Shown piece by piece: positions 5,673 through 56,300 of a stretch of DNA of 64,000 nt. Source of the stretch: Candidatus Levyibacteriota bacterium (GTDB taxonomy: Bacteria; Patescibacteriota; Microgenomatia; Levybacterales; UBA12049); contig JAGOUW010000002.1 in the NCBI GenBank assembly GCA_018061075.1, positions 38,944-102,943 of the forward strand, in the 5' to 3' direction. A program made the position numbers and the translations under genes. The notes beneath the pieces were generated by a model that ran no database searches, had not been told where the DNA came from, and was given only the letters and a program-made list of their open reading frames with translations. The stretch's first letter is position 1. Each line of letters starts with the position of its first letter.

Positions 5673-6221
5673 ATGAATAAAGTAATAGCCATAGTCGGAA
5701 TGCCCGGAGCTGGTAAAAGTGAAGCGAGTAGTTTTTTTATTGAAAAAGGATTTGAGCGAGTTTATTTTGGATCTGTAATTGTTGACGGGTTAGTAGAGGA
5801 AGGATTGGAAAGAACAGCTGAAAATGAGGCTTATTATCGAAAAAAAATTAGAGATGAGCTTGGAATGAATGCTGTTGCTATTAAATTGCTCCCAAAAATA
5901 AAACAAAACATTTCTGAGGGTAAAAAAGTTATATTGGATGGGTTATATTCATGGGAAGAATACACATTTCTAAAAAAAGAAATATCCAATTTGTATCTCC
6001 TAGCAATTTATGCAAGGCCAGCGATCCGTCATCAAAGACTATTGGAGAGAAAAGAGAGGTCTTTTACGGAAGAAGAAGCTGAGAAGAGAGATGCTGATGA
6101 GATAGAAAAATTAAACAAAGGTGGCCCAATAGCATATTCTGATTATTTAATTAAAAATGAAGGTACAAAGGAAGAGTTTTATCAAAATCTGGGAAAGTTT
6201 TTAGAGGTAGAAAATGGTTGA
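5673..6221 (+). CDS. Second P-loop nucleotide/dephospho-CoA-kinase-like protein (resembles archaeal UPF0200-type kinases)
   Basis: 182-aa ORF with Walker A GMPGAGKSE at residues 9-17, a DG...(L)YSWEE mid motif and a C-terminal acidic helix. The family assignment is from memory of archaeal UPF0200/CoaE-like proteins and is not verified. Confidence 0.5.
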   Translation: MNKVIAIVGMPGAGKSEASSFFIEKGFERVYFGSVIVDGLVEEGLERTAENEAYYRKKIRDELGMNAVAIKLLPKIKQNISEGKKVILDGLYSWEEYTFLKKEISNLYLLAIYARPAIRHQRLLERKERSFTEEEAEKRDADEIEKLNKGGPIAYSDYLIKNEGTKEEFYQNLGKFLEVENG

Positions 6222-6972
6222 TATTAAAACACCAGAAGAAATTGAAATTATGAAACACGGAGGGAAAATTCTCTCAGATGTTTTGTGGGAAGTTTTAGAC
6301 TCAGTTAAGCCAGGAGTTAGCGAATTAGATGTAGAAAGACTTGCTGACAGGTTAATTGCAGAAAAAGGTGGAGAAGCTGCATTTAAAAGAGTAAAAGGAT
6401 ACAAGCATGCGACATGTATTTCTACGAATAATGTAGTTGTTCATGGAATTCCGAGTGATTATAAATTTAAAGATGGGGATATTTTAGGAGTTGATTGTGG
6501 AGTTTTTTATAAAGGATTTAATACGGATATGTCCCATTCTATAATTGTTGGGAAGAAAAAGGATCCCGCTGTTGTTAAATTCCTGGAAACTGGAGAAAGA
6601 GCACTAAACGAGGCTATTAAACAGGCTGTTATTGGTAACAGAATAGGTCATATCTCAAAAACCATCCAAGATATAGTGGAAAAAGATGGTGGATATGGGG
6701 TAGTTAGGGCTTTAATTGGTCATGGTGTCGGTAAAGAGCTTCACGAAGAGCCAGAAGTCCCAGGATATTTAGCTAAGAAAATCGAGAAAACAGCGCTTTT
6801 AAAAGAAGGAATGACTATAGCAGTTGAAGTGATTTACAACATGGGAGGTCATGAAGTTTCTTATTTAAGTGATGATGATTGGACTATTTCGAGCTCAGAT
6901 GGGTCGCTTTCAGGGCTTTTTGAGAGAACAATTGCGATAACTAAAGATGGTCCTTTAATATTAACCAAATAG
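6214..6972 (+). CDS. map: Methionine aminopeptidase type I
   Basis: 252-aa ORF with metal-ligand context VVHGIP, GVDCGVFYKGFNTDMS, IGHGVGKELHEEP and EVIYN. Usual position after adk. Confidence 0.93.
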   Translation: MVDIKTPEEIEIMKHGGKILSDVLWEVLDSVKPGVSELDVERLADRLIAEKGGEAAFKRVKGYKHATCISTNNVVVHGIPSDYKFKDGDILGVDCGVFYKGFNTDMSHSIIVGKKKDPAVVKFLETGERALNEAIKQAVIGNRIGHISKTIQDIVEKDGGYGVVRALIGHGVGKELHEEPEVPGYLAKKIEKTALLKEGMTIAVEVIYNMGGHEVSYLSDDDWTISSSDGSLSGLFERTIAITKDGPLILTK

Positions 6973-12600: not shown

Positions 12601-14520
12601 ATGTCTGAGCCTGTGAATCCAATCGTTGAACAAGGTGTATCTGTTGATCAAGCCCCGGCGCCTGCACAGACAACTCCCCTTAAAAATCCAAATGCAGGAT
12701 TTCTTCGCACAATTAAAGTGGATGAGCCAGGAAGAATGTTAAGGGATATAGCAGATGCAGCGCCTACAGAGGCGGATGGAAGGTCCCCAGGGGTTTCAGT
12801 AGATATCGGCAATGGAATGCTTGGCCTAGAGCTTGCAGAGCCAGATCAGTCATTTAATTTGGGAAATATTTTTAGTTCTGATGCTTCAAATTTGGGGAAT
12901 GATAGATTCACTGGTGTATACATAGAAACTAAATCGGGGAATAGATATTTTATTGGCGGAGATTATATGAGGGGTCGCGTGGTTAATGCTTCCCAGAGTA
13001 GGGCATTGGGAAAACCTCATGCGATTGAATATAACGGAGAAACTCTTGCAAGAAGTAAAATCATAATCGGTAAGCCTTTAACTTATGGAATTGGATCTCA
13101 ATACACTGGAACCACTTCGGATGTTGTAAGGGCGACATTTATAAATGGCGGAAGAGTTTATGACCAGCAATATCTAGATGGATTAACTGGGGGTAAAAAG
13201 AGCGCAGCTGTAGAAGAGTTTGCAAGGGATTCTCAGCCTGACAAAGAGAGTTTGCAGGCGAAAACTGAAGCAGCTAGTCAACCAGAAGTAAATTTAGAGT
13301 CGATAAAAAGGCCTTTAACTGTTGAGGATGTAATAGAATTCCAAAGGCAATTTAGGAACTTTGATCAGGCGAGCAGAGCAGCAGGAAAAGCCTACCTGCT
13401 TAATGAAAATCAATATTATGAGTTTCTTAGCACTGGGGCATTTTATGGAGTTGAGAAGCCCGCAGGGCAAGAAGTAGACCTATTAACAGCAGAGGGAAAA
13501 CAGGCATACGATTCTCTACTTTTATCAACTTTTAAAAACTGGAGAGCGGCTCTTATCGCTGATCAAGCTAGGATCAGTAAGAAGCGCCCTGAGCTTACAA
13601 AACAGCTAGGTGATTTTAGAACGATTCCTGATCCACAAACTGCAGCAGAAGTTAGACAATTATATATAAATAATCCTGCATTAAATGAATTATCAGCGGC
13701 ACAATACCAGGATGGTCTTTCAGGTCAATTTGTTGAAAATAATTTTTTACATTTTCAGGGCCATAGAGCTAGTGGTTATCAGTATGAAAGGCCAAATACA
13801 GAGACTCGTGTTTATCTGAATCCGCCGGTGAATGAGGCTCCTAAGTTAGCTGCAGAATTTGTCAGAATTGCTACGGAAAGAGGTATTCCTTATTATTTCA
13901 AATTAATTGATTTTTCTTTACAGAAGCCATCACCCCAAGATTATCAAAGAGTAGATAAGATGCTTTTTTATTCAGATAAAGCAAATGCTGCCAAAATAGT
14001 AGGTGTTTTAGCCGAGATAAGATCTCAACATCCTGATTGGTTTGGTGGTCGATCTCTCCCTCCAATGGTAGCTAGGGTGATGGATGGAGTCGGAGTTGCC
14101 GAGGAGCCATCTCCATTTCAAAATCAAAAATTCAAAGTTCCAGGACACGAAAACACTTCATTCAATAGAGTTAGGGCAGCATATTTTGATAGACTATGGC
14201 CTGAGGTTATGAGAGAGGTTCTTATAAGAAATCCTGATATAAGACCACGCGGTGGCAGAACAATGAGAGAGATTTTTACAGATTTTGTTCCTGCTGAAAG
14301 TAGAGATCTGGTTGATAATTTATGGGCTAAAGGATTGAAAGCTGATGCAGATGACAGGCCGGCAAGGATGGCTTTAGATTATGCATTGAAGTATTCAGTT
14401 CAAGACGTGCTACCTGATATTAAGCCTGAATCACTATTGCCGTGGGTGCAAATGGTTTCTAGGAAGATTTCTCCAGATTTCGGAATTGATCCAAACAATA
14501 TTGCTGGTAACTCTAATTAA
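12601..14520 (+). CDS. Hypothetical protein, 639 aa, no recognisable family
   Basis: Long uninterrupted ORF with its own upstream region. No TM segment or signal peptide. Pro/Ala-rich N-terminus. Composition is richer in Arg, Gly, Pro and Ala than neighbouring proteins. See findings. Confidence 0.8.
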   Translation: MSEPVNPIVEQGVSVDQAPAPAQTTPLKNPNAGFLRTIKVDEPGRMLRDIADAAPTEADGRSPGVSVDIGNGMLGLELAEPDQSFNLGNIFSSDASNLGNDRFTGVYIETKSGNRYFIGGDYMRGRVVNASQSRALGKPHAIEYNGETLARSKIIIGKPLTYGIGSQYTGTTSDVVRATFINGGRVYDQQYLDGLTGGKKSAAVEEFARDSQPDKESLQAKTEAASQPEVNLESIKRPLTVEDVIEFQRQFRNFDQASRAAGKAYLLNENQYYEFLSTGAFYGVEKPAGQEVDLLTAEGKQAYDSLLLSTFKNWRAALIADQARISKKRPELTKQLGDFRTIPDPQTAAEVRQLYINNPALNELSAAQYQDGLSGQFVENNFLHFQGHRASGYQYERPNTETRVYLNPPVNEAPKLAAEFVRIATERGIPYYFKLIDFSLQKPSPQDYQRVDKMLFYSDKANAAKIVGVLAEIRSQHPDWFGGRSLPPMVARVMDGVGVAEEPSPFQNQKFKVPGHENTSFNRVRAAYFDRLWPEVMREVLIRNPDIRPRGGRTMREIFTDFVPAESRDLVDNLWAKGLKADADDRPARMALDYALKYSVQDVLPDIKPESLLPWVQMVSRKISPDFGIDPNNIAGNSN

Positions 14521-24733: not shown

Positions 24734-25216
24734 TTAACCTCTTATTTCGTTTATTAGAGCTGTTGTAGATCTATTATCTATTTTTTTAATAACTACTTTA
24801 AGCTCTGATCCAATTGATTCGCATTGTTTTTTTCTCTTATCCGTCTGCGAATCGCCTTCTGTTATAGCTATAACTTCAGGCCTAATTTGAATCATTATTC
24901 TATCATATTCTTCATCAGTTGTCACGCCTACAAGTGGAATTATATAATCAACATCGCTAATTGCAGAAACTACTATCTGTCTATTTTTTTGAGAATTTAT
25001 AGGTCGTCCATTGCCTTTTCTTTTCTTAATGCTCTCGTCGCTTTCTAGGAGTAGGATTAATGCGTCACCTTCTCTTTTTGCAGCTTCTAGAAATAAAATA
25101 TGTCCTGGATGGATAATGTCAAAGCATCCGCCAACTAAAACAATTTTTTTATTTTCCTCTTTTAATCTGAGGACAGTTTCAGAAATATCATTAAGTTCTA
25201 TAATTTTTCCCGCCAT
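24734..25216 (-). CDS. Cytidylyltransferase-like nucleotidyltransferase (TagD/RfaE-domain-II family)
   Basis: VLVGGCFDIIHPGHILFLEAAK carries the (T/H)xGH signature of this superfamily. 160 aa. Confidence 0.75.
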   Translation of the reverse strand: MAGKIIELNDISETVLRLKEENKKIVLVGGCFDIIHPGHILFLEAAKREGDALILLLESDESIKKRKGNGRPINSQKNRQIVVSAISDVDYIIPLVGVTTDEEYDRIMIQIRPEVIAITEGDSQTDKRKKQCESIGSELKVVIKKIDNRSTTALINEIRG

Positions 25217-28828: not shown

Positions 28829-30016
28829 ATGGATAATTTTTATAAAGAATTAGATGAGGTTTTAAAAATTGGTGCCACTCCTAGAATTATTGAATCAGGA
28901 CAAGGTGCATATCTCACGATCGACGGAGTGGAAAAATTAAATTTTTGCTCAAGCCATTATCTTGGTCTTGCACAGGATCCAAGAGTTAAGGATGCGGTAG
29001 TTGAGGCTGTTAAGAAATATGGAATTGGAACTGGTTATAGAACACTCGCAGGAACTCATGTTTTACATTTAGAACTTGAAGATGCGATAGCGAAATTCAA
29101 GGGAACAGAAGGAGCTTTAACTTTTTCTAGTGCCTATTTAGCAAATGCGGCAGCAGTTCAAACAATTATAGGAAAAGAAGATATCGTAATTTCAGATGAA
29201 CTAAATCATGCTTCAATAATTGATGCAGTTAGGCTTTCTGGCGCAAAAAATAAATTTATTTATAAGCATGCAGATACTAAGGATTTAGAAGAAAAACTTA
29301 AAGAAGCGGATGCGCTTAGGAAAACTCCAAGAAGTGACGGAAAATCTCCTTTAATTTTAATTATCACAGATGGAGTTTTTTCAATGGATGGAGACTTAGC
29401 GCCTCTTCCTGAAATAGTCCGCTTAGCAAAAGAGTATGACGCATTAACTATGGTAGACGATGCACATGGAGAGGGAGTAATGGGAAAAGGAGGACGCGGA
29501 GTGGTTGACCATTTCGGACTAGTCGGACAAATTGACATAGAAGTTGGAAGTCTTTCCAAGGCATTTTCTTCGCTGGGTGGATTTATAGCAGGAAATAAAA
29601 CACTAATAGGGTTTTATAAATTAAAGGCTCGTCAAAGACTTTTTTCAATCGCACTTTCAATTCCAGATACAGCAGCAGCATTAGAAGGAATAAGAATTCT
29701 TCAAAATTCCGGAGATTTAGTTGATAAGCTTTGGGAAAATGTAAATTATATTCGCGCTGAATTTAAAAAATTAGGGTTTGATACAGGAAGAACAGAAACC
29801 CCGATTACCCCAGTTATGATAGGGGATGAAGATAAGGCTAAGGAATTTTCAGTTAAATTATTTGAATTAGATGTTTTTGCAACTCCAATTGTTTTTCCGA
29901 TGGTCGGAAAAGGGAAAGCTAGAATTAGAGTTATCCCATCAGCGGCTCATTCCAGGGAAGATCTTGATAAAGGCATTGATGCATTTAGGAGGGTTAAAGG
30001 GGAGTTAGGATTATGA
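28829..30016 (+). CDS. kbl: 2-amino-3-ketobutyrate CoA ligase (glycine C-acetyltransferase) family PLP enzyme
   Basis: 395 aa with SHYLGL, TDGVFSMDGDLAPL, DDAHGEG and the GSLSKAF PLP-lysine motif. Translationally coupled (ATGA) to the downstream threonine-dehydrogenase-like gene. Confidence 0.85.
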   Translation: MDNFYKELDEVLKIGATPRIIESGQGAYLTIDGVEKLNFCSSHYLGLAQDPRVKDAVVEAVKKYGIGTGYRTLAGTHVLHLELEDAIAKFKGTEGALTFSSAYLANAAAVQTIIGKEDIVISDELNHASIIDAVRLSGAKNKFIYKHADTKDLEEKLKEADALRKTPRSDGKSPLILIITDGVFSMDGDLAPLPEIVRLAKEYDALTMVDDAHGEGVMGKGGRGVVDHFGLVGQIDIEVGSLSKAFSSLGGFIAGNKTLIGFYKLKARQRLFSIALSIPDTAAALEGIRILQNSGDLVDKLWENVNYIRAEFKKLGFDTGRTETPITPVMIGDEDKAKEFSVKLFELDVFATPIVFPMVGKGKARIRVIPSAAHSREDLDKGIDAFRRVKGELGL

Positions 30017-30957
30017 AGAAAATTTTAGTAACTGGAGCCTTTGGATTAATAGGAACAGAGCTCGTAGCGGCATTACAGGAAAAATATGGCAAGGAAAATG
30101 TCATCGCAGCTGCGCATTCTAAGGTTCCAGATAATTTTGATGGTATTTTAGAAAAAGCTGACGTTACCAAAAAAGACGAACTAGTTGGTCTAGTAAAAAA
30201 GCATGATATTGGTACTGTTTATCATCTTGCAGGAATTCTATCGGTAGGAAGTGAAAAAAATCCTGGTCTTGCTTGGGAAGTGAACTTAGATGGATTAAAA
30301 AATGTTCTCGATGTTGCAGTCGAAGAAAAGTTAAAGATTTTTTGGCCAAGTTCAATTGCTGCATTTGGGCCAACTACTCCAAAAGAAAATACCCCCCAGC
30401 ATACAGTTTTAGAACCAACTACTATTTATGGTGTTGCGAAAGTTTCCGGAGAACTTCTATGTCAATATTATTTCAATAAATTCGGTATTGATGTTAGAAG
30501 TTTGCGCTATCCAGGTATTAATGGTTGGAAAGCAGATCCTGGAGATGGAACTACGGAATATGCTATTCATATTTTTTATGCAGCATTAAAGGAAGGAAAA
30601 TATGTTTCACCGCTTAAACCAGGAACGTATCTACCGATGATGTATATGAATGACGCTATTTTAGGAACTATTCAGTTGATGGAAGCTGATCCAGCCAAAT
30701 TAACAGTAAGAACAAGTTATAATTTCGCAGGTATCTCTTTTTCTCCAGATGAGTTAGTGGAAGAGATTAAAAAATTAATGCCTAACTTTAGCGCTACATA
30801 TGAACCTAATCATACTCAGGCTATTGCAGATTCCTGGCCAAAATCAATTGACGATTCACAGGCGAAAAGCGACTGGGGTTGGGAGCCTAAGTTTAAACTG
30901 CCGGAAATGACTCAAGAGATGCTTGAGAATCTTCGAAAAAAACTTAACATCTCCTAA
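30013..30957 (+). CDS. tdh: SDR/epimerase-fold L-threonine 3-dehydrogenase
   Basis: ILVTGAFGLIGTEL Rossmann motif and YGVAKVSGE (YxxxK). The pairing with kbl is characteristic of the short-chain type TDH. Confidence 0.75.
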   Translation: MKKILVTGAFGLIGTELVAALQEKYGKENVIAAAHSKVPDNFDGILEKADVTKKDELVGLVKKHDIGTVYHLAGILSVGSEKNPGLAWEVNLDGLKNVLDVAVEEKLKIFWPSSIAAFGPTTPKENTPQHTVLEPTTIYGVAKVSGELLCQYYFNKFGIDVRSLRYPGINGWKADPGDGTTEYAIHIFYAALKEGKYVSPLKPGTYLPMMYMNDAILGTIQLMEADPAKLTVRTSYNFAGISFSPDELVEEIKKLMPNFSATYEPNHTQAIADSWPKSIDDSQAKSDWGWEPKFKLPEMTQEMLENLRKKLNIS

Positions 30958-30997: not shown

Positions 30998-31969
30998 ATG
31001 AAATATGATCTGATTGCAAGTGGTGGAACATTCGATCTTCTCCATAAAGGCCATAAAAGTTTTCTAAACCAAGTTGTAAAACTTGCTGATAAAGTAATTG
31101 TTGGCGTTACTAGTGACTCATATGTCTCAAGCTTTAAAATAAATAATTATGAGGACTTCAAAACAAGAGAGAGAAATGTTTATGAATACTTAAAAACACT
31201 TAGCGCTCCTAATAAAATTGAGATCGTAGAAATAAATGATATTTACGGCCCAGTGCTTAGTAAAAAATTTAAAGCAGGAGCTATGGCAGTAACGCCTCAA
31301 ACGAATAGAACAGCAATTGGGATTAATGAAAAAAGATTAGAGATGGGTTTGTCAAAGTTATCAATTGAAGTTATTGAGATGGACGCAGCAGATGATGGAG
31401 GATTTATTTCAAGTACCCGTATAAGAAATGGCGAAATAAATAGAGAGGGTAGGCTTTATGTTAACAAGAGATGGTTAAGTCGCGATCTTCAGCTTCCAGA
31501 AATTCTTCGCTCATCCTTACATAAGCCATTGGGAAAAATATTATCAGACGTGCCAAGAGAAATTGATAGTAATATTATTACGATTGGAGATATTACTACT
31601 AAAAAATTTAATGAAAAAAATATTAATCAATTTTTGTCAATTATAGATTTTCAAGTTAAAAGACAAAAGAAGTTTGATGGCATTTCTGATTTAGGCTTTA
31701 AAGAAATAAAAGCAATTAAAATAAAAAATCCAGCTGGTACTATTTCTTCAGATTTATTTAAAGCTATTATTGATGCGATCAAATCTAAGAAAAGACAGAT
31801 AATTTTAGTTGACGGAGAAGAAGACTTAGCAGTTTTGCCGGTGATAATTGCTTCACCTCTGGGATTTCAAATTTATTATGGTCAACCTGATGAGGGTCTC
31901 GTGGAAGTAGAAGTTACGGAAAAAGTAAAAGAAAAAATATACGATATATTAAGTAAATTTACTGGTTGA
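30998..31969 (+). CDS. Fusion protein: archaeal/eukaryotic-type phosphopantetheine adenylyltransferase + DUF359 (archaeal GTP-dependent dephospho-CoA kinase-like) domain
   Basis: N-terminal GGTFDLLHKGHKSFL...VIVGVTSD (cytidylyltransferase fold, COG1019-like). C-terminal IGDITT...DFQVKR...IKNPAGTIS...ILVDGEEDLAVLPVI...YGQPDEGLV matches my memory of the DUF359 consensus. Start at ATG 30998; the tracked start at 30923 overlaps tdh. Confidence 0.7.
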   Translation: MKYDLIASGGTFDLLHKGHKSFLNQVVKLADKVIVGVTSDSYVSSFKINNYEDFKTRERNVYEYLKTLSAPNKIEIVEINDIYGPVLSKKFKAGAMAVTPQTNRTAIGINEKRLEMGLSKLSIEVIEMDAADDGGFISSTRIRNGEINREGRLYVNKRWLSRDLQLPEILRSSLHKPLGKILSDVPREIDSNIITIGDITTKKFNEKNINQFLSIIDFQVKRQKKFDGISDLGFKEIKAIKIKNPAGTISSDLFKAIIDAIKSKKRQIILVDGEEDLAVLPVIIASPLGFQIYYGQPDEGLVEVEVTEKVKEKIYDILSKFTG

Positions 31970-32000: not shown

Positions 32001-32115
32001 ACATGTTTAGAATATTTGTTTCAAAGAAGGACAAGAGCCTCTTAGCGAGGGGATTTGTCTTGGCCTAAACATAGAAACTTAGAGACCCGACAACCCCTCA
32101 ATGGAGGGGTTTTTT
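32001..32115 (+). promoter_or_regulatory. Structured leader / small RNA ending in an intrinsic terminator (candidate attenuator or riboswitch)
   Basis: Nested helices: ATGTTTAG (32003-10) pairs with CTAAACAT (32065-72); GACAAGA (32030-36) pairs with TCTTG-C (32058-64); CCTC (32038-41) pairs with GAGG (32047-50). GAGGGG (32047-52) and GAGGGG (32104-09) both complement CCCCTC (32094-99). Confidence 0.4.
32094..32115 (+). terminator. Rho-independent terminator
   Basis: CCCCTC-AATG-GAGGGG followed by TTTTTT. Confidence 0.65.
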
Positions 32116-32141
32116 AGTGGGAAAAACGGAGGTGATTATTT

Positions 32142-32495
32142 ATGGCATTAGCAATTGAAGCGATGGGAGTAACAGAAGAATTAGGGGCATGGAGTCTTCC
32201 GGAGAAATTACCCGGGAATTCAAACGTGACTTTAAGAGCAATTGGAGATTTTTCAAATTTGAATCCTAATGAATTGACTCGAGTTAATTTTGGAGTTGCA
32301 GAGTTAGCTAGGGTAATATTTGAAGGTGGAGGATCTGAGCCAGGATTTGGATACAGAATTGAGCCTAGAATCAGGAATGTTTATGCAGTTATTCATGAGG
32401 GATTAGAATCCCAGGCGTCTGTAGAGGGACTCGTAATTAGAAGAGGTGTAATTTACAATCCTGAATTTGTATTATTTCAGGCAAGGAGAATCTAA
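32142..32495 (+). CDS. Hypothetical protein, 117 aa
   Basis: ORF preceded by strong SD GGAGGTGA at good spacing. No TM segment or signal peptide. 1 Lys versus 10 Arg. No recognisable family. Confidence 0.7.
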   Translation: MALAIEAMGVTEELGAWSLPEKLPGNSNVTLRAIGDFSNLNPNELTRVNFGVAELARVIFEGGGSEPGFGYRIEPRIRNVYAVIHEGLESQASVEGLVIRRGVIYNPEFVLFQARRI

Positions 32496-32523
32496 AATTT
32501 TAAATAGTTAAGGGGGTGAATTA

Positions 32524-32811
32524 ATGTTGATAGAATTAATAAAAAGAGATTTAGTTGGCGAAGTATTAGGGGCATCTAGTTCTGTTCAAGGCCATAACCC
32601 TGATTTAACAGTAAGTGCTGGAAAAAGGGATGAGTTACTGGAGCGCAAGCTTCCGGAGTTGAGGTTTAATAAAAAAAAGGCGGAAGTTGTTTTTGATCGA
32701 GGTGTGCAAGTTAGGCCATCTTTGTTAGAAAAACGAGTTATTGTTTCAACTGACCGTGTGATTCCTAGTGCTTCAACTGTGCGTAGAGGTCCTGGTTTTT
32801 TAAGAGCCTAA
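32524..32811 (+). CDS. Hypothetical protein, 95 aa
   Basis: ORF preceded by strong SD AAGGGGGTGA, 28 nt after the previous ORF. No recognisable family. Confidence 0.65.
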   Translation: MLIELIKRDLVGEVLGASSSVQGHNPDLTVSAGKRDELLERKLPELRFNKKKAEVVFDRGVQVRPSLLEKRVIVSTDRVIPSASTVRRGPGFLRA

Positions 32812-32855
32812 TGCTCTTCGTTTATATTTATTTTCTTTTAGGGTAAAATACGATT

Positions 32856-34370
32856 ATGTTTTGGGCTGATAAAGTTGCAAAAGAGATTATCGATTCAGGA
32901 AATTATAAACCTTACCGGGTGGACGATATGTTTACCCCGTCGGGGCATCCCCATGTGGGCTCTTTACGCGGACCTTTAGTTCATGATGTAGTTTATAAAG
33001 CCTTGAAAGGAAAAGGTGAATCCGTAAAATGGACTTATATTACAAATGATTTTGACCCGATTGATGGTCTTCCTGCGGAATTAGAAGAATCACATAGCAA
33101 ATACATGGGTTACCCTGTTAGATCAGCTCCATCACCAGAGCCTGGTTATGAAAATTTTGGAGATTATTTTGCTAAACAATATCAAGAAGTTCTAAGAGAT
33201 TTAGGTGTTGAATCAGAATTTTTATCTTCTTGGGACATGTATCACGAAGGGAAATTTAACGATGTAATAAAAACTGCATTAGATAATGCAGAAAAAATTC
33301 AAGATATTTACGAGAAAGTAAGTGGAAGCAAAAAACGAGAATCTGGATGGCTTCCTCTTCAGGTTATTTGCGAAAGCTGTGGAAAGCTAGGAACTACGAG
33401 AGTTACAAATTGGGATGGAGAAACTGTTGAATACACCTGTGAACCAGAAATGGTGAAATGGGCTAAGGGCTGTGGACATAAGGCTAGAATTAGTCCTTTT
33501 GATGGTAACGGAAAGCTTCCTTGGAAAGTTGATTGGCCCGCACACTGGAAAGTTTTAGGAGTAACGATTGAAGGCGCTGGAAAAGATCATTCATCTGCTG
33601 GTGGATCTAGAGATATCGCAAAAGTGCTTTGCCGCGAAGTTTTTAATATTCCAAATCCATATAATCTTCCATACGAATTTATGTTAATCGGGGGTAAAAA
33701 AATGTCATCATCAAAAGGGCTAGGTCTTAAAGCTCGTGATCTTGCAGATATGTTGCCTCTAGAGCTTGGCCGATTTTTATTCCTAAAAACAGAATATAAA
33801 AAACAAGTTGAATTTGATCCTATGGATAGTATCGCAATTCCAGTTTTATTTGATGAATATCAAAAGGCAGCGGATTTATATTTTAAAAAATCCAATGATG
33901 ATTTAGCTCGGGCATTTGAATATTCGCAGATTGGAGAACCTAAAAAACCACCCACTGTTCGATTCTTGGTTTTAACATCCTGGGTGCAAATGCCAAATAT
34001 GGAAGAAGAAATTGAAAAGCAGGGCTTAGGGGAATGGGCAAAGTATGCAAAAATTTGGATAGAAAAATTTGCTCCAGAAGAATATAAATTTACAGTTCAA
34101 AAAGAACTTCCAGAAAATATTGAATTAAGCCAAAAACAAAAAGAACTTTTGGGAAAAACTGCAGAGTTTGTATCCGAGATAAAAGATTCAACTGAACTTC
34201 AAACAAGAATTTATGATTTAAGTAAAAGTTTGGAATTAACTTCTGGTGAAGCGTTTGCTGCTTTTTACAATTCATTGCTAGGAAAAAATCATGGACCCAA
34301 ACTTGCTGCATTAATTCTTTCTCTTGACCCAATATTTGTTAAAAATAGATTTGAAGAGGCCTCGAAATGA
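32856..34370 (+). CDS. lysK: Lysyl-tRNA synthetase, class I
   Basis: 504 aa with PSGHPHVGSLRG (HIGH-type) and KMSSSKG (KMSKS) motifs and a Cys-rich insertion (CESCGK...CEPE...GCGH). The overall layout is that of class I LysRS, not class II LysS. Confidence 0.85.
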   Translation: MFWADKVAKEIIDSGNYKPYRVDDMFTPSGHPHVGSLRGPLVHDVVYKALKGKGESVKWTYITNDFDPIDGLPAELEESHSKYMGYPVRSAPSPEPGYENFGDYFAKQYQEVLRDLGVESEFLSSWDMYHEGKFNDVIKTALDNAEKIQDIYEKVSGSKKRESGWLPLQVICESCGKLGTTRVTNWDGETVEYTCEPEMVKWAKGCGHKARISPFDGNGKLPWKVDWPAHWKVLGVTIEGAGKDHSSAGGSRDIAKVLCREVFNIPNPYNLPYEFMLIGGKKMSSSKGLGLKARDLADMLPLELGRFLFLKTEYKKQVEFDPMDSIAIPVLFDEYQKAADLYFKKSNDDLARAFEYSQIGEPKKPPTVRFLVLTSWVQMPNMEEEIEKQGLGEWAKYAKIWIEKFAPEEYKFTVQKELPENIELSQKQKELLGKTAEFVSEIKDSTELQTRIYDLSKSLELTSGEAFAAFYNSLLGKNHGPKLAALILSLDPIFVKNRFEEASK

Positions 34371-42372: not shown

Positions 42373-45345
42373 ATGAAGTTTTTATTTTTAAATATTTTTA
42401 AAAGCTTTAGGTCTCAAAATGGTCAATCTTTAGTAGAGCTTCTAATTGCAATTGGACTCGCAACTCTTATTCTTCCGGCGCTACTAACAGGACTTTCCGC
42501 TGGAAGAGGGGGAAGAGCCCAGCAGGAGCAAAGACTTGAGGCTTCAGCTTATTTAAAACAAACTCAGGAAGCTGTAAGAAGTATCGCACAGAGGGGTTGG
42601 TCAAATATTGAGACAAACGGAATATATCATTCTGTTGTATCTGGAGGGCAGTTTGTATTAGCAAATGGTGCTCAATCAATTGATGGATATTCAATTAGTA
42701 TAGTGGTAGGTGACACTTATAGAGATGGCGCTGGTGCAATTACTTCAAGTGGGGGAACGATTGATTCCTCGACGAAAAAAGTAATTACGAATGTTTCCTG
42801 GAATACACCATTTGTTTCAACAGTGAGTACAACTTCTTATTACACTCGTCATAAGAATCAAGTATATAACGAAACAACGCAGTCGCAGTTTAGCGTGGGA
42901 ACTTTTGATAATATGCAAGCGACCAATGTGACAGGAGGAGAATTAAAATTAATTAATAACAATAAAGCGAAATGGTGTTCTCCGGCATTTTCTACAGCAA
43001 CTATTGATCTCCCTGACGGCCCACCGGTAGCTGTGGCTGCTACTGCGAACTCAACGACAAGCGTCCCCAACGACGTATATGTTGCAACTGCACCTACAAC
43101 ATCTAACTCTATAAAAATGGCTTACATAAACGTTACGGCTGATACGGCAGTACCTACTGCAACACTTCGCGGGAAATTCACCGTTAATTCGTCTGAGTTT
43201 TCCCCAGGATATTCGCCATCAGGAGGGACAGGGCTTGATAATAATTTTAAGACAACAGACGTAAAATATTATAAATCTTCAGGAAATAATACATATGCAC
43301 TTCTTGGAACAAATTTACCAAATAAAGAAGTAATTGCGGTTTTAGTAAACGATGATAATCCAGCAAATGATGAGACGTCGGCTGGGGAATTTGAAGATCC
43401 AGTTAATAATATTTATAAATATAAAACTTTTTTTAATACTAAAATTCATGCTAATTATGCAGCAAGTGCTAATACTGGATTGCTTACACCAGCCTCAAAT
43501 GCAACTGAAGTTGGTGGGGACGGGGATGGGTTTGCATCGAATCCTACAAGAGCATATACGGATAACAATTCTTTCGCAGTGGATACAAACAGCGGAAATG
43601 GAACTGGGGTAGATTGTACCGGAGCAGATAAGGACAAGCATAGATTTTATAACTATGACATTGATGTTCCTCCTGGAGCAAACATAGACGGAATAGAGGT
43701 TAGGCTCGACGCAAGAGTGGATAATGCTGCAGGCGCCCCACGTATGTGCGCCCAGATTTCGTGGGATGGAGGGACTACATGGACCACTGCAAAGACTACA
43801 AATAACTTAACTACAAGTGAAGCAACGTATACTCTTGGTGGAGCTGCAGATACCTGGGATAGAAGCTGGACTGATACTGATTTTACAAATTCTAACTTTA
43901 GACTAAGAGTTATAAATATTGCTTCCGATATAAATCGTGATTTTTCTCTTGATTGGGCAGCAGTAAGAGTAAGTTACACAAATAACAACTTTGATCAATC
44001 ACCATTTGGGTATGGGGCAACTACAATTGCGGTTCTTGAAGACAGAGGCTATATGGCTTCAGGAGGATATTTATACAGTTTTGATTTAAGTAATATCGAT
44101 AGTAAATCTTCTGGGAGCGGATTAGATATGTTAGGATGCAGAATTGAGCTTAGTGGTTACGAATGTAGTCCGAGTACGGCTGCAAAATATGGATCTGGTG
44201 CTACTGGATCCAATTGGAGCACTACTTCACCGATTCATCCTGATTGTTCTGACGGAGGAAATATAGAGCTAAATGCGACGAATGATATTTTCCCAGTAAA
44301 AGTAGGTTCTAATACATATGTCTATGTGGCAGTGGGGGGAGTTACAGATCGTGAATTTGAAATAGTTGATGCTACTAGTATCCCAACCACAACAAGTACT
44401 CCGGCGATAAGCAGTAATACTTGCGGTAGACTTTCTGGTGGTAATTCATCCTGGAAAACAATAAGCGGTCTTGATTTTAATTCACAATCAGGGACTGAGG
44501 AGGCTGCTAATTCTGTATTTGCTAAAGCTGATGGAACGCGTGCGTATATTTCTTCAAACGGAGGTATTGATGGAAACGATAATGGTGTTCCTGATAGTAA
44601 GCAATTTTATATTATTAATACTTCTACGAAAACTGCTCCTGTATTTTTGTCAGGAACTTCTGGTACCCCATCGTATGGACCAACAAGCGGGTTTTATTAT
44701 GGGACTGGGGCAAATGCGCAGCTTTATCCAAGGAGGTCTCTTACTGTTTTGAATGGGGAAAGGGTGGTTTTAGTGGGAAGTGATGGGACCGCGGACTCAA
44801 ATAATTCTGAGGAGTATCAGGTGTTAGATAGTTCAACGGAAGCATCTCCTAATTATTGTGCAGGTATAAATTTCGATCAAGGATTTAATGATTTGACTTC
44901 TGTTTCAGAAGCGGACAGTGATAACTTCGTATATATGGTTGCAAATACTACATTAAATGAACTTAAGATTATTGAGGGTGGACCTGATGACGCAGTTTTT
45001 GTTTCAACTGGATCATATACTTCTGCACCATTTGATGCTGCATCAGAATCCATGTTTAATAGATTTTTTACAACCACCAATGTTCCTTCGCAAACTACTC
45101 TTAATTTCCAGGTTGCAGTAGCAGACTCTGTTAGCGGAAGCTGCACTAATGCTAATTATGTATATGTGGGCCCAGATGGTACCGATGGAACATTCTTTAC
45201 TTCGTCCGCAGAGCTGCCTAAGAATTCTGATGGGTCAGGATTTGAAAATGCTGGAAGATGTATGAGGTATAAGGTTTATATGACATCCAGCGATCAGCTC
45301 CAAACGCCTACGGTTTTTGATTTTGGAGTTAACTATTCCCCATGA
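42373..45345 (+). CDS. Giant (990 aa) pseudopilin-like protein, candidate pilus-tip adhesin
   Basis: N-terminal RSQNG/QSLVELLIAIGLATLIL prepilin motif, followed by about 950 aa of Thr/Ser/Asn/Gly-rich sequence. This includes a single Asp-box (SWDGGTTW) inside a beta-sandwich-looking module. Confidence 0.8.
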   Translation: MKFLFLNIFKSFRSQNGQSLVELLIAIGLATLILPALLTGLSAGRGGRAQQEQRLEASAYLKQTQEAVRSIAQRGWSNIETNGIYHSVVSGGQFVLANGAQSIDGYSISIVVGDTYRDGAGAITSSGGTIDSSTKKVITNVSWNTPFVSTVSTTSYYTRHKNQVYNETTQSQFSVGTFDNMQATNVTGGELKLINNNKAKWCSPAFSTATIDLPDGPPVAVAATANSTTSVPNDVYVATAPTTSNSIKMAYINVTADTAVPTATLRGKFTVNSSEFSPGYSPSGGTGLDNNFKTTDVKYYKSSGNNTYALLGTNLPNKEVIAVLVNDDNPANDETSAGEFEDPVNNIYKYKTFFNTKIHANYAASANTGLLTPASNATEVGGDGDGFASNPTRAYTDNNSFAVDTNSGNGTGVDCTGADKDKHRFYNYDIDVPPGANIDGIEVRLDARVDNAAGAPRMCAQISWDGGTTWTTAKTTNNLTTSEATYTLGGAADTWDRSWTDTDFTNSNFRLRVINIASDINRDFSLDWAAVRVSYTNNNFDQSPFGYGATTIAVLEDRGYMASGGYLYSFDLSNIDSKSSGSGLDMLGCRIELSGYECSPSTAAKYGSGATGSNWSTTSPIHPDCSDGGNIELNATNDIFPVKVGSNTYVYVAVGGVTDREFEIVDATSIPTTTSTPAISSNTCGRLSGGNSSWKTISGLDFNSQSGTEEAANSVFAKADGTRAYISSNGGIDGNDNGVPDSKQFYIINTSTKTAPVFLSGTSGTPSYGPTSGFYYGTGANAQLYPRRSLTVLNGERVVLVGSDGTADSNNSEEYQVLDSSTEASPNYCAGINFDQGFNDLTSVSEADSDNFVYMVANTTLNELKIIEGGPDDAVFVSTGSYTSAPFDAASESMFNRFFTTTNVPSQTTLNFQVAVADSVSGSCTNANYVYVGPDGTDGTFFTSSAELPKNSDGSGFENAGRCMRYKVYMTSSDQLQTPTVFDFGVNYSP

Positions 45346-47081: not shown

Positions 47082-48017
47082 ATATGACTATTAACTGCCC
47101 AAAGTTTTTAAAGAAAAATTCCGGATTTACATTAATCGAGCTTTTAGTTGTAATCGGAATTTTGGCTATCCTCCTTTCAATCGTTCTTATCGCTATTAAC
47201 CCAGCAAGACAATTCGGACAAGCAAACAACACAAAAAGAAGAAGTGATGTAACTCAGATCCTTAATGCTATCGGAGCATTTTCAGCAGACAACAAAGGTG
47301 TATTACCAGCAAATATTCCATTAACAACACCACAAGTAATTGGAGACGGTGTTGGTCAAGCAAATATCTGTGCTGATATCTTAACAACATACATCCCAGC
47401 TCTTCCAAGAGATCCACAGACACCAGGCGGAGACATAACAAGTTGCACAACTTACAGCACAAATTATACAGTAGTGAAGGATGCAAACAACAGAGTTACA
47501 GTTGCAGCTCCTGGTGCTGAAAACGGAGAGACAATCTCAATCTCAAGGTAAATAATATGACTATTAACTGCCCAAAGTTTTTAAAGAAAAATTCCGGATT
47601 TACATTAATCGAGCTTTTAGTTGTAATCGGAATTTTGGCTATCCTCCTTTCAATCGTTCTTATCGCTATTAACCCAGCAAGACAATTCGGACAAGCAAAC
47701 AACACAAAAAGAAGAAGTGATGTAACTCAGATCCTTAATGCTATCGGAGCATTTTCAGCAGACAACAAAGGTGTATTACCAGCAAATATTCCATTAACAA
47801 CACCACAAGTAATTGGAGACGGTGTTGGTCAAGCAAATATCTGTGCTGATATCTTAACAACATACATCCCAGCTCTTCCAAGAGATCCACAGACACCAGG
47901 CGGAGACATAACAAGTTGCACAACTTACAGCACAAATTATACAGTAGTGAAGGATGCAAACAACAGAGTTACAGTTGCAGCTCCTGGTGCTGAAAACGGA
48001 GAGACAATCTCAATCTC
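47082..48017 (+). repeat. Perfect tandem direct repeat, 463 nt x 2, period 473 nt (pilin gene duplication)
   Basis: By base-by-base visual comparison, 47082-47544 is identical to 47555-48017. The identical antisense ORFs in the track (47268-47486 and 47741-47959) corroborate this. Confidence 0.9.
47084..47551 (+). CDS. Type IV major pilin, copy 1
   Basis: 155 aa with leader MTINCPKFLKKNSG / FTLIELLVVIGILAILLSIVLIAI (G|FTLIE) and a two-Cys C-terminal domain. Confidence 0.9.
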   Translation: MTINCPKFLKKNSGFTLIELLVVIGILAILLSIVLIAINPARQFGQANNTKRRSDVTQILNAIGAFSADNKGVLPANIPLTTPQVIGDGVGQANICADILTTYIPALPRDPQTPGGDITSCTTYSTNYTVVKDANNRVTVAAPGAENGETISISR

Positions 48018-48024
48018 TCGATAA
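47557..48024 (+). CDS. Type IV major pilin, copy 2 (protein identical to copy 1)
   Basis: Same 155-aa translation. The DNA is identical to copy 1 except for the last two sense codons (TCT CGA versus TCA AGG, both Ser-Arg). Confidence 0.9.
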   Translation: MTINCPKFLKKNSGFTLIELLVVIGILAILLSIVLIAINPARQFGQANNTKRRSDVTQILNAIGAFSADNKGVLPANIPLTTPQVIGDGVGQANICADILTTYIPALPRDPQTPGGDITSCTTYSTNYTVVKDANNRVTVAAPGAENGETISISR

Positions 48025-53331: not shown

Positions 53332-56300
53332 TTAACTTCTTCCGTATCTAATTTCTTGAACTTGTTCCTTTGTTAAATTTAAGGATCTTGCAATAGCATC
53401 GTCAGATAAATTTTGATCGGCATAAAACATTACTTTTCCTCTTATTTCATCTGTAATTATTCCATGACTTGCTGGATCACCATATTTTCTAGCAAGGAAG
53501 CCTGGGCTTGCATGAGGTGTTGGTGCAGAGGGAGCAGTGTGTTGCAAAGGTGCTGTATAAATTGGTGTAGGAGCCGTAGTATAAGCCCTTTCTAATGGAT
53601 ATCTAGCTGCCATAGGTGTGGCTATGGTTGGTGGAAATTGAAAGTTACTTAAATCTGGCCATTCAAATGTAAAACCACCTCCAGTTGGAATAATTGGTTC
53701 TGGGCTAGAGCTTGGCTTAGTTTCTGGAGTTGGTGTTAATTCAGGTGTTGGCTCTGGTGTAGGTTCTGGTGTTGGAATAGGTGTGGGCCTTGGTGTTGGG
53801 TCAACTGGGTCAATAGGTTCAGGTAGCTCGCCTGGTAATATTTTTGTTACAGAATTTGTAACTGTTCCCATTCTAATTTCTTTTGGAGTTTCTCCACATC
53901 CTTGAATAGTTGCATGAATTGTTGCCTTTCCATCTCTCAATGTTCCAGCTTCAATAGTATCAACTCTAAATATTTCTCTTCTTTCTGTATGAACTTCGGT
54001 CTGGAGACTTCCATGATAATTTCTAAGTTCGTCCTGATCAATTGCAATTCTTGCTACGTCTCCGTAAGTCATTCCGTCACGACGCCCTGGAATTAATTTT
54101 TTAGAATCTGGATCAAGTCTTACAACTCCGTCTTTGGTTTCTGGGAGCCAAACTCTATTACCATTTATGTTTAAAAATACTCCATTTGAAGAATTTGGAA
54201 TCCTAAGTACAACAGCATTTCCGTCGCGTCTATTAAATATTCCAAGTTCATCGCGGTCATATTTTCCAGGAGTTCCATTCGCATCCCAAGTTACACTTTT
54301 AAGATCGGTGGCCATTTCTCTCCAGACTCCATTTTTTCCTAAAACTCTTCTTATGTCAGGCTCGGAGGAAGTAGCTGTTTGAATTTTATCTATCCATAGG
54401 CTTTTTGGATCTGCTACAAGTTTTCCGTCAACCCATTTAAGATCATCAAGTAGAACTGTTGTGCCATCTTTACTCGAAACTAAATCATATCCACCATTAG
54501 CTCTATCTATCACAAGTCTTGTGTGTTCAGGAATGCTAATTGGTTTTCCATTTAATTCAGCTTCATAAAAATTAGTTGGAGCTTCTTGTGCGAAAACCGC
54601 AACTTCCACCTCTGGAGTTATTGCTGAATCTATTGGTTTTATTGTGCTAGGAACACTGTGTTCAGCTGAAATATGATCATTTATAGCTAATCTAGTTGTT
54701 TGATCGATTGGAGCCGAAGGTTGTTTGAATGAAATTTTATCTAACTCTCCTCTTATGTCTTTAATCCTATCGTCAATTAGATCTCTTACGCCTCCAACTA
54801 CATCGATTCCTAATGCGTCAGATGCCATTCTAATTCCAGCTGTTCCTATAGCGACTACGCCTGCTCCCAGTGCTCCTTTAGCAGCACCTTCTACGAATGC
54901 TTTCCTAGATTCCCTTGTTCTGTATTTATCAAATTTTTTATCTTGCTCTTTGTTGGTTCTTGTTAAAAATTCTTCCCATTTTTGTGTTCTTTCACTTAAA
55001 ATTCTTTGATATTCTGCATGACTTATTCCAGAAAACCTAACAGCATCAATAGCTTTTAGTCTTAGTTCTTCTAAGGCAAGCTTTTCTTGTTGAATTAATC
55101 TATCTGAAGAATACATTACGTGATCTGTTTGTTCCTTTATTCCAAATCTTCTTCTGACATCAATTTCTGCGATTCTACTTATCAAGGCATTTAATGCTTT
55201 TTTATTTTGCTCCCTATCTTTATCAGTGAAAAAAGTGCTGTCTGATAAATCCCGACTTATTAAATTTCCTGCACCGGCAAATAACTTATCAACTGATGTT
55301 TTTCTTCTGGAAAAACTATCTAATGCTAATCTTCTTGGTTGATTAGATGTGGTTTTAATTCCTGATGCTTGATCTTTTTCTAATGTAGCCCTGTCTCTTT
55401 TAAGGTCATAGCTTCTTCTTGCTTTTGCATTCCATCCTCCGATAATTGCTCCAGGTAAAATACCTACGACTGGAGCCACTGATCTAACTCCCCAGCTTGT
55501 AGCTCCAAGCGCTAAGTTAGTTCCTATTGATGCTCCAGCGCCCAAAACTAGTGGATTTGCTAAGACTCCAGTTTTTCTTCTTTTCTGTGCACCTTTTATC
55601 AATTTATCTCTTCTAGTAAGCTCTGCTTGAGTTTCAGTACCCCAGCGTGGAATTGCGAATCCTACATTGAAATCAACTTGATCAAGAGTTATTATTCCAT
55701 AATCTATTGCCTCTCTAATTTCTCCAACCTTCTGTACCATATTTGAGCTAAATCCGGCCATAAAATCACTAGAATCAAAATCTTTTCCGAAGTGTTTTTT
55801 TAAATCCAGAGAGTTAGCTTTAGTAAATCTTGCAAATCTTTCCTCAATCTCTGAAGGAGTTAGTCTTCCAGCGATATATCCTAAAAGTTCGAAGCTGATT
55901 TTTTCTTGTAATTTTTTATCAACTTCAGCTTTTCGGGCGGCAAACTGTTCGGGTGCAATATCTAATCCTTTTAGTGTTGACTGGATTGCGGTTTCAAATT
56001 TGTCTCGATCGGTTTCTGCCTGAGTAACTTTTCCAGACTGAATATTTATCTCAGCATAAGGGTTTCCAGCTTCTATAAGAGCTTTTTTAAATCTTCTTGT
56101 ATATTCTTGTCTTTTTCCTTCTTCAGTAATTCTAGTAGATACGATTCTTCTCATGCTTCTAAGTTTCCCTAGTCTACCTTCGCTTGGAGCTAGTTCTTGT
56201 TGAAGTCTTTGTTCTGCCCATTTTTCAGCTTCTTGATCATATGCTGGGTCAAGTGAAGTAAATAAAATATTAAACTTTACACTTTCTTTCTCTGGTTCTG

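Follow-up and report, generated by a model that had tools for sequence, protein, structure and literature searches.

A bacterial gene fusing an archaeal-type phosphopantetheine adenylyltransferase to a DUF359 kinase domain as a probable bifunctional coenzyme A synthase of Microgenomates

In a 64,000-nucleotide stretch of contig JAGOUW010000002.1 from Candidatus Levyibacteriota bacterium (assembly GCA_018061075.1, contig positions 38,944 to 102,943; hereafter the window), we identified a complete gene at positions 30998 to 31969 whose 323-amino-acid product joins an archaeal/eukaryotic-type phosphopantetheine adenylyltransferase (PPAT) to a C-terminal DUF359 domain. The latter is homologous to TK1697, a standalone protein of Thermococcus kodakarensis whose GTP-dependent dephospho-coenzyme A (CoA) kinase (DPCK) activity has been proven (Shimosaka et al. 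2019, PMC6650551). We consider it probable, at roughly four chances in five, that the gene product acts as a bifunctional 'CoA synthase' made of archaeal-type parts. The initial annotation of this DNA had proposed that one polypeptide would perform the last two steps of CoA synthesis with such parts, a proposal that the domain assignments, motifs and fold described below support. Neither the enzyme type nor the architecture is new: the gene adds a bacterial representative to a bifunctional type that is already known, and it is typical of its lineage.

The host, an ultra-small member of the Levybacteria, is bacterial: the window, whose GC content is approximately 35%, carries a bacterial ribosomal-protein operon along with other bacterial genes. 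Among them are L14, L5, SecY, Adk, Map, RpoA with an alpha-CTD, L17, L13 and S9, as well as RecA, RecX, RNase Y, TsaD, GreA, seryl-tRNA synthetase, SecA and type IV pilus genes.

Domain composition, active sites and predicted fold

The gene and its parts are as follows, in window coordinates.

30998-31969, plus strand: complete PPAT/DUF359-type DPCK gene, 323 amino acids, from ATG at 30998 to TGA at 31967-31969 (open reading frame list and sequence)
30998-31462, plus strand: N-terminal domain, archaeal/eukaryotic-type PPAT, residues 1-155 (NF001985; 3DO8 by sequence and fold)
31022-31054, plus strand: GGTFDLLHKGH, residues 9-19, the (T/H)xGH nucleotide-binding signature of the nucleotidyltransferase superfamily (invariant residues in homologues)
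31406-31426, plus strand: ISSTRIR, residues 137-143, second conserved nucleotidyltransferase motif (conservation; aligns with ISSTRIK of 3DO8)
31463-31489, plus strand: short interdomain linker, residues 156-164 (between the NCBIfam and PDB match limits)
31490-31966, plus strand: C-terminal domain, DUF359 / arCOG04076, residues 165-323, GTP-dependent DPCK homologue (PF04019, NF041125, 8JVC)
31589-31591, plus strand: Asp198 (GDITT), equivalent to TK1697 Asp48 (alignment to 8JVC/TK1697)
31646-31648, plus strand: Asp217 (IIDFQ), equivalent to TK1697 Asp67 (same alignment)
31823-31825, plus strand: Asp276 (GEEDL), equivalent to TK1697 Asp125 (same alignment)

The open reading frame lies exactly where the initial annotation had placed it, and every motif quoted there occurs in the 323-residue protein. 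A longer frame opening at TTG 30923 overlaps the upstream gene, and this start is not supported because homologues in a 35-sequence alignment begin at MKY or MKF. An identical protein is deposited at NCBI as 'MAG: pantetheine-phosphate adenylyltransferase [Candidatus Levybacteria bacterium]', a name that leaves the kinase half unnamed.

The N-terminal half belongs to the archaeal/eukaryotic-type PPATs and not to bacterial CoaD, as the initial annotation had read it. The cytidylyltransferase-like Pfam family PF01467 covers residues 9-144 (54.9 bits, E=1e-14), and the NCBIfam PPAT subfamily model NF001985 covers residues 4-155 with 142.3 bits against a curated cut-off of 104, while the bacterial CoaD model TIGR01510 scored 19.1 bits against a cut-off of 103.3. 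In the PDB, the half matched the archaeal PPAT 3DO8 (E=3.7e-22). Both nucleotidyltransferase signatures, (T/H)xGH and ISxxxIR, are present, and the half also holds VGVTSD.

The HxGH superfamily is promiscuous, and the half has weak matches to RfaE domain II (34 bits), TagD (30 bits), FAD synthase (17 bits) and nicotinamide mononucleotide (NMN) adenylyltransferase (NMNAT; 16 bits), so that a RibL-type FAD synthase, an NMNAT or a TagD-like enzyme could be envisaged in place of a PPAT. However, NF001985 is the sole model exceeding its cut-off (142 versus 104), with the remainder falling far under theirs, and among solved structures the best match is the archaeal PPAT 3DO8. In addition, triple fusions among the relatives hold a separate NMNAT-like domain upstream of the PPAT, hence the two are distinct domains. 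The suspicion that RibL or TagD might fit this half better than PPAT was put to the test, with the PPAT subfamily model coming out far ahead and the fold search in agreement, and we regard another nucleotidyltransferase identity as highly improbable.

The C-terminal half falls within DUF359, as had been recognised from its motifs. Pfam model PF04019 matched residues 200-321 along profile positions 1-125 of 126 with 113.8 bits, well over the cut-off of 25 (E=5e-33), and the predicted structure and the fold search point to the same placement. The NCBIfam model for GTP-dependent DPCK, NF041125, matched residues 165-320 (83 bits, E=1.7e-23), and the PDB sequence match was the T. kodakarensis GTP-dependent DPCK 8JVC (E=9e-19). 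The CoaE model TIGR00152 gave no match to the 323-residue protein in NCBIfam. The recognisable motifs of this half are GDITT (containing D198), IIDFQVKR (D217), NPAGTIS, VDGEEDLAVLPVI (D276) and YGQPDEGLV.

We next consider fold and conservation. An AlphaFold2 model computed from an alignment of 35 fused homologues had a mean predicted local distance difference test score (pLDDT) of 93.2 and a predicted TM-score (pTM) of 0.88, with every segment at or above 50. When the model was compared with the PDB using Foldseek, the top matches were the DPCK structures 8JVC and 8JVG (E=1.5e-15; TM-score normalised to target length, TMt, 0.79-0.80), and the PPAT half matched 3DO8 (E=7e-10, TMt 0.81-0.84). 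Bacterial CoaD structures were weaker matches (E~5e-6, TMt~0.65). Residue blocks 141-170, which span the linker region, had a pLDDT of 96-97, and in this model the shortness of the linker together with the high pTM suggests a fixed arrangement of both domains.

Conservation was assessed in two independent alignments of diverse fused homologues, A1 (n=35) and A5 (n=15), with identities down to ~27-35%. Within A1, G10, T11, F12, H16, G18 and H19 are invariant, and S138, S139, I142 and R143 are at least 90% conserved. D198, D217 and D276 are invariant in both alignments, where the motifs G-T-F-x-x-x-H-x-G-H, ISSxRIR, GEEDL and YGQP are likewise invariant or nearly so. These three aspartates align with D48, D67 and D125 of TK1697, and in vivo in T. 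kodakarensis the D48A and D67A variants were severely impaired and D125A partly impaired (PMC6650551). As the catalytic residues are invariant or near-invariant across diverse fused homologues, purifying selection on both active sites is indicated.

Proposed reactions and coenzyme A supply

In the scheme that we propose, the N-terminal nucleotidyltransferase domain would convert 4'-phosphopantetheine and ATP to dephospho-CoA and pyrophosphate. The DUF359 domain, predicted to be a thiamine-pyrophosphokinase-like Rossmann variant and not a P-loop kinase, would then phosphorylate the 3'-OH of dephospho-CoA, yielding CoA and a nucleoside diphosphate from dephospho-CoA and a nucleoside triphosphate. 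By analogy with TK1697 the phosphate donor would most likely be GTP. The fusion would hold both activities at 1:1 stoichiometry, and the intermediate may pass directly from site to site, such that channelling is plausible.

Several points weigh against this scheme. The PPAT equivalog model NF041124, which was built on Thermococcales, scored 57 bits against a cut-off of 290, and the DPCK equivalog NF041125 missed its cut-off of 300 bits with the 83 bits given above. As the latter model is Thermococcales-specific, its low score bars the label of 'equivalog of the Thermococcales enzyme' but not membership in the family. We infer the PPAT and DPCK activities of the bacterial members from the domain assignments, and GTP as donor is assumed by analogy with TK1697, to which the DUF359 half is 31% identical. 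Finally, canonical CoaD and CoaE or the upstream pathway genes may lie elsewhere in the genome, beyond the 64 kb surveyed.

This 31% identity and the score under the equivalog cut-off, together with the distant relationship of the DUF359 family to thiamine pyrophosphokinases (PMC6650551), lend some weight to the view that bacterial DUF359 is a kinase with another donor, such as ATP, or another acceptor than TK1697, or that it is a regulatory or binding domain. Set against this are the invariance of the three functionally tested aspartates and of GEEDL and YGQP, the fold match to 8JVC, and an obligate fusion to PPAT in hundreds of sequences, which argues for the adjacent step of the pathway. 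We therefore consider a divergent role of the domain very unlikely, and continue to favour a DPCK acting on the product of its own PPAT half.

A different objection is that the protein is bifunctional but redundant, with the genome also encoding canonical CoaD and CoaE and/or the upstream pathway; if so, the gene would be uninformative about 4'-phosphopantetheine salvage. The survey covered ~64 kb of the genome, and this stretch contains both a UPF0200/AdkA-like P-loop kinase gene at 5673-6221 and a second cytidylyltransferase-like gene at 24734-25216, either of which might be read as a sign of redundancy. The initial annotation had described the first of these as a CoaE/UPF0200-like kinase. 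Its UPF0200 part was borne out, in that the product is an archaeal-type UPF0200/AdkA-like kinase (PDB 3H0K and 3LW7, E=3e-16), but its CoaE part was not, as TIGR00152 (cut-off 65.6 bits) scored 21 bits and aligned over the P-loop region only; we rejected it as a CoaE candidate. The P-loop homologues of DPCK in T. kodakarensis, TK1334 and TK2192, moreover lacked DPCK activity (PMC6650551). The second gene was rejected as a CoaD candidate, since it is RfaE-domain-II-like (108 bits). Profile searches found none of CoaD, CoaE, CoaBC and PanK within the 64-kb window. Candidate Phyla Radiation (CPR) genomes are in general poor in cofactor synthesis, which also counts against redundancy, and we hold a redundant role to be unlikely, if deserving of some weight. 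We infer that the sole CoA route of the cell would be the fusion protein fed by imported 4'-phosphopantetheine, and salvage of 4'-phosphopantetheine by this lineage is a reasonable expectation. The UPF0200/AdkA-like gene itself is flanked by adk and map where the ribosomal-protein operon ends.

Among known systems, eukaryotic COASY is a bifunctional PPAT and DPCK: one polypeptide carries out both of these reactions, and its PPAT domain shares the non-CoaD type of ours. Its kinase domain, however, is an ATP-using P-loop homologue of CoaE, whereas the kinase half described here has the unrelated DUF359 fold, and because of this difference the CPR fusion and COASY would represent analogous, independent solutions. 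Bacterial CoaD and CoaE catalyse the same steps as those proposed for the fusion, and CoaD shares the nucleotidyltransferase superfamily fold, but the kinase half here has neither a P-loop nor homology to CoaE. Our protein resembles the archaeal PPATs, including A. fulgidus 3DO8, T. kodakarensis TK2128 and the P. abyssi enzyme, in its subfamily score, its HxGH and ISSTRIR motifs and its fold, and differs in that its PPAT domain is fused. TK1697 (8JVC/8JVF/8JVG) resembles the DUF359 half in fold (TMt 0.79-0.80) and in its conserved D48, D67 and D125 at 31% identity, but is a standalone protein of 175-177 amino acids, while the DPCK-type domain here forms the C-terminal half of a fusion.

A link between DUF359 and CoA synthesis had been drawn from domain fusions (Makarova et al. 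2019, PMC6393860), and PPAT-DUF359 fusions of uncultured marine archaea served as the clue to the archaeal DPCK (Shimosaka et al. 2019, PMC6650551). As the fusion was thus already published for uncultured archaea, its architecture is not novel. The PSI-BLAST searches of that study returned archaeal sequences only (PMC6650551). Our literature search, in which coverage of subscription journals was incomplete, found no publication on the bacterial PPAT-DUF359 branch, although its sequences exist in databases. The fusions of marine group II/III archaea (e.g. AIF21550.1) share with our protein a single open reading frame of 323-347 amino acids, the order PPAT then DUF359, and equal catalytic motifs; the single-frame layout is that found in the Poseidoniales loci L013, L015 and L027 (L-numbers denote loci of relatives compared with the window). 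They differ in having an extra segment of ~20 residues (…GPED.PEVAM…) before the VGD motif, which the window protein lacks, and in that their hosts are archaea while the host here is a CPR bacterium.

Distribution and origin of the fusion

A word-indexed search returned 588 homologues of the fusion protein, and the best 120 of these, down to 49% identity, all possess both Pfam domains at a length of ~325 amino acids. When the DUF359 half alone was searched exhaustively with HMMER against 1.84 billion representatives at 50% identity, 2292 clusters passed E<=1e-3, of which 1443 also passed E<=1e-10. Approximately 130 of the best 150 clusters are proteins of 300-375 amino acids in which the match lies in the C-terminal half. 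Fused relatives with a named source derive from Levybacteria/Levyibacteriota, Roizmanbacteria, Beckwithbacteria, Curtissbacteria, Pacebacteria and Daviesbacteria, with others labelled 'Microgenomates group' or 'Patescibacteria group'. The fusion thus occurs in hundreds of Microgenomates sequences, where it is the usual form of both enzymes rather than an oddity of one genome. The view adopted in the initial annotation, that DUF359-type DPCK is essentially archaeal, does not survive these data, given that most of the best clusters are of fused size and that the source-named fused relatives are Microgenomates/CPR bacteria.

A scan of genome contigs also recovered full-length fusions from marine group II/III archaea (Poseidoniales, Thalassarchaeaceae), and standalone PPATs from many other archaea. 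Six loci bore proteobacterial labels (Gammaproteobacteria, Pseudomonadales or Vitreimonas; L010, L014, L018, L024, L028 and L075), which we judged unreliable. The 'Vitreimonas' locus L014 lies on a 1.41-Mb contig with 43.5% GC and encodes a protein ~51% identical to a Pacebacteria protein, and the N-terminus of the 'Gammaproteobacteria' protein from L028 is nearly identical to that of Roizmanbacteria L012. L014 and L075 have a common neighbouring gene though they are labelled as different classes.

Annotation of the family is uneven. Some homologues carry the JGI label 'phosphopantetheine adenylyltransferase/uncharacterized protein (UPF0218 family)', while NCBI names the PPAT half only. Because the NCBI name covers only this half, pathway reconstructions will score the last step of CoA synthesis as missing in these genomes.

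A subset of relatives comprises three-domain proteins of 460-520 amino acids, in which an archaeal-type NMNAT precedes the PPAT and DUF359 domains. An example is encoded at L012:5497-6984 (Roizmanbacteria JANLIS010000055.1), with others at L028 and in P0394, P0415, P0416, P0425, P0448 and P0462. Their NMNAT domains scored 116-121 bits with NF002243, just under the cut-off of 127, and their PPAT domains 164-191 bits. Judged by its domains, such a protein would finish NAD and CoA synthesis in one polypeptide.

To place the bacterial gene, one tree was built per domain (MAFFT alignment, Kimura distances, neighbour-joining, 100 bootstraps). The marine-archaeal fusions formed their own clade in 99/100 and 63/100 bootstraps, while monophyly of all fused sequences was recovered in 2/100 (DUF359) and 0/100 (PPAT) and a split of bacteria from archaea in 10/100 (DUF359) and 0/100 (PPAT), the deep nodes being without support. 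In median bit score, the PPAT half was closer to standalone archaeal PPATs (83.5 bits) than to the marine-archaeal fusions (55 bits), as was the DUF359 half to standalone archaeal DUF359 proteins (89 versus 49 bits).

These results bear on whether the bacterial gene could be a recent horizontal copy of an already-fused marine group II/III archaeal gene. Poseidoniales and Thalassarchaeaceae likewise have PPAT first and DUF359 second, as such a transfer would predict. However, both domains of the window protein score higher against the standalone archaeal proteins, the marine-archaeal fusions form a separate clade and fail to group with the other fusions, albeit in trees whose deep nodes are weak, and the bacterial clade shows great diversity, comprising ~130 clusters at 50% identity. 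We consider a recent copy quite unlikely; the comparisons favour, though not decisively, a gene acquired long ago, or fused independently, at the base of the Microgenomates.

Gene neighbourhood and significance

The fusion gene lies among the following neighbours.

28829-30016, plus strand: Kbl-like 2-amino-3-ketobutyrate CoA ligase (glycine C-acetyltransferase; TIGR01825 474 bits, NF005394 428 bits)
30013-30957, plus strand: short-chain dehydrogenase/reductase (SDR)-type L-threonine 3-dehydrogenase, tdh (PDB L-threonine dehydrogenases, E=1e-119 to 1e-67)
32092-32117, plus strand: terminator-like hairpin and T-run, 123 nucleotides past the stop codon (terminator scan)
32856-34370: class I (archaeal-type) lysyl-tRNA synthetase (LysRS), lysS (TIGR00467, 358 bits)

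The kbl gene, both of whose scores fall just under the model cut-offs, lies two genes upstream of the fusion gene on the same strand and encodes a CoA-consuming enzyme. It overlaps tdh by 4 nucleotides, and 40 nucleotides separate the end of tdh from the fusion gene; because of this overlap and short gap, a kbl-tdh-fusion operon with co-transcription is likely. The terminator scan saw no terminator-like site between the three genes, the first being that at 32092-32117. The kbl gene adjoins the fusion gene in L001-L004 and is nearby in L006 and L058. A further point against our reading is that the Kbl/Tdh adjacency is not present in the Levybacteria loci L007, L008 and L025 and may be plain synteny; since these other Levybacteria lack it, the functional link to kbl is suggestive only. 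Beside kbl we also observed non-orthologous displacement, in that the threonine dehydrogenase is SDR-type in the window and L001 and a Zn-dependent alcohol dehydrogenase-type enzyme in L002 and L003. The L002 enzyme is encoded at 5752-6759, a place equivalent to 30013-30957 of the window.

Downstream, the terminator-like hairpin is kept after the orthologous gene in L001, L002, L004, L005 and L025. It forms part of a two-hairpin element at 32020-32122, reading GGACAAG…CCTCTTAGCGAGGGG…TTTGTCTTGG, then CCCCTCAATGGAGGGG-TTTTTTAGTGG, which is ~86% identical to its counterpart in L001. The second hairpin, with TTTTTTAGTGG, recurs in L002, L004, L005 and L025, where protein identity is only ~50% or lower (38% in L025). 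Rfam gave nothing relevant in the window or in the 886-bp gap downstream of the fusion gene, and folding of the conserved downstream element was not significant (z=-1.4). A conserved terminator and a small RNA are both possible readings of the element. The region between the terminator and lysS (32135-32855) contains two small open reading frames of 117 and 95 amino acids with no family match, and is without similarity to the same position in L001, where the fusion protein is 84% identical and the open reading frames are of 78 and 223 amino acids. By this comparison the region is a hypervariable insertion site. The class I LysRS that the initial annotation had noted in the window was confirmed by its TIGR00467 score, and it occupies the same position in the Levybacteria loci L001, L002, L004 and L025.

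Other features of the window were also noted. A perfect tandem duplication at 47082-48024, with a period of 473 nucleotides, yields two 100% identical type IV pilin genes of 155 amino acids that carry the N-terminal methylation motif; either the duplication is of very recent date or it is an artefact of assembly. A 639-residue protein encoded at 12601-14520 has a HopA1 type III effector family domain (PF17914, 37.9 bits, residues 380-506), which is unusual for a CPR bacterium. Two very large open reading frames have no Pfam match, one at 42373-45345 (990 amino acids) and one at 53332-57909 on the minus strand (1525 amino acids). The former is located within the type IV pilus cluster, where it follows the T2SSE and T2SSF genes and precedes the pilins.

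A broader picture, which we regard as possible but tentative, would be that all Microgenomates make CoA only via the PPAT-DPCK module, probably GTP-dependent, acting on imported 4'-phosphopantetheine. The bacterial DUF359 clade would then be as old and diverse as the archaeal one, with a fusion that is independent of the marine-archaeal one or was exchanged very early, and in some lineages the module would have grown into an NMNAT-PPAT-DPCK 'cofactor-finishing' enzyme. If this picture were true, DUF359-type DPCK would be no archaeal invention confined to archaea, with consequences for how CoA synthesis in early cells is reconstructed and for what CPR bacteria must obtain from their hosts.

Collectively, our data place the DUF359-type DPCK family within a large bacterial radiation, in which it is always fused to an archaeal-type PPAT. 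What is new is this extension of the family into bacteria, a kinase half that annotation has missed, and a metabolic dependency that becomes testable. The fusion suggests that these host-associated, uncultured bacteria depend on 4'-phosphopantetheine or a later CoA precursor, and such a dependency would be useful for the design of cultivation media and for predicting exchange between host and symbiont.

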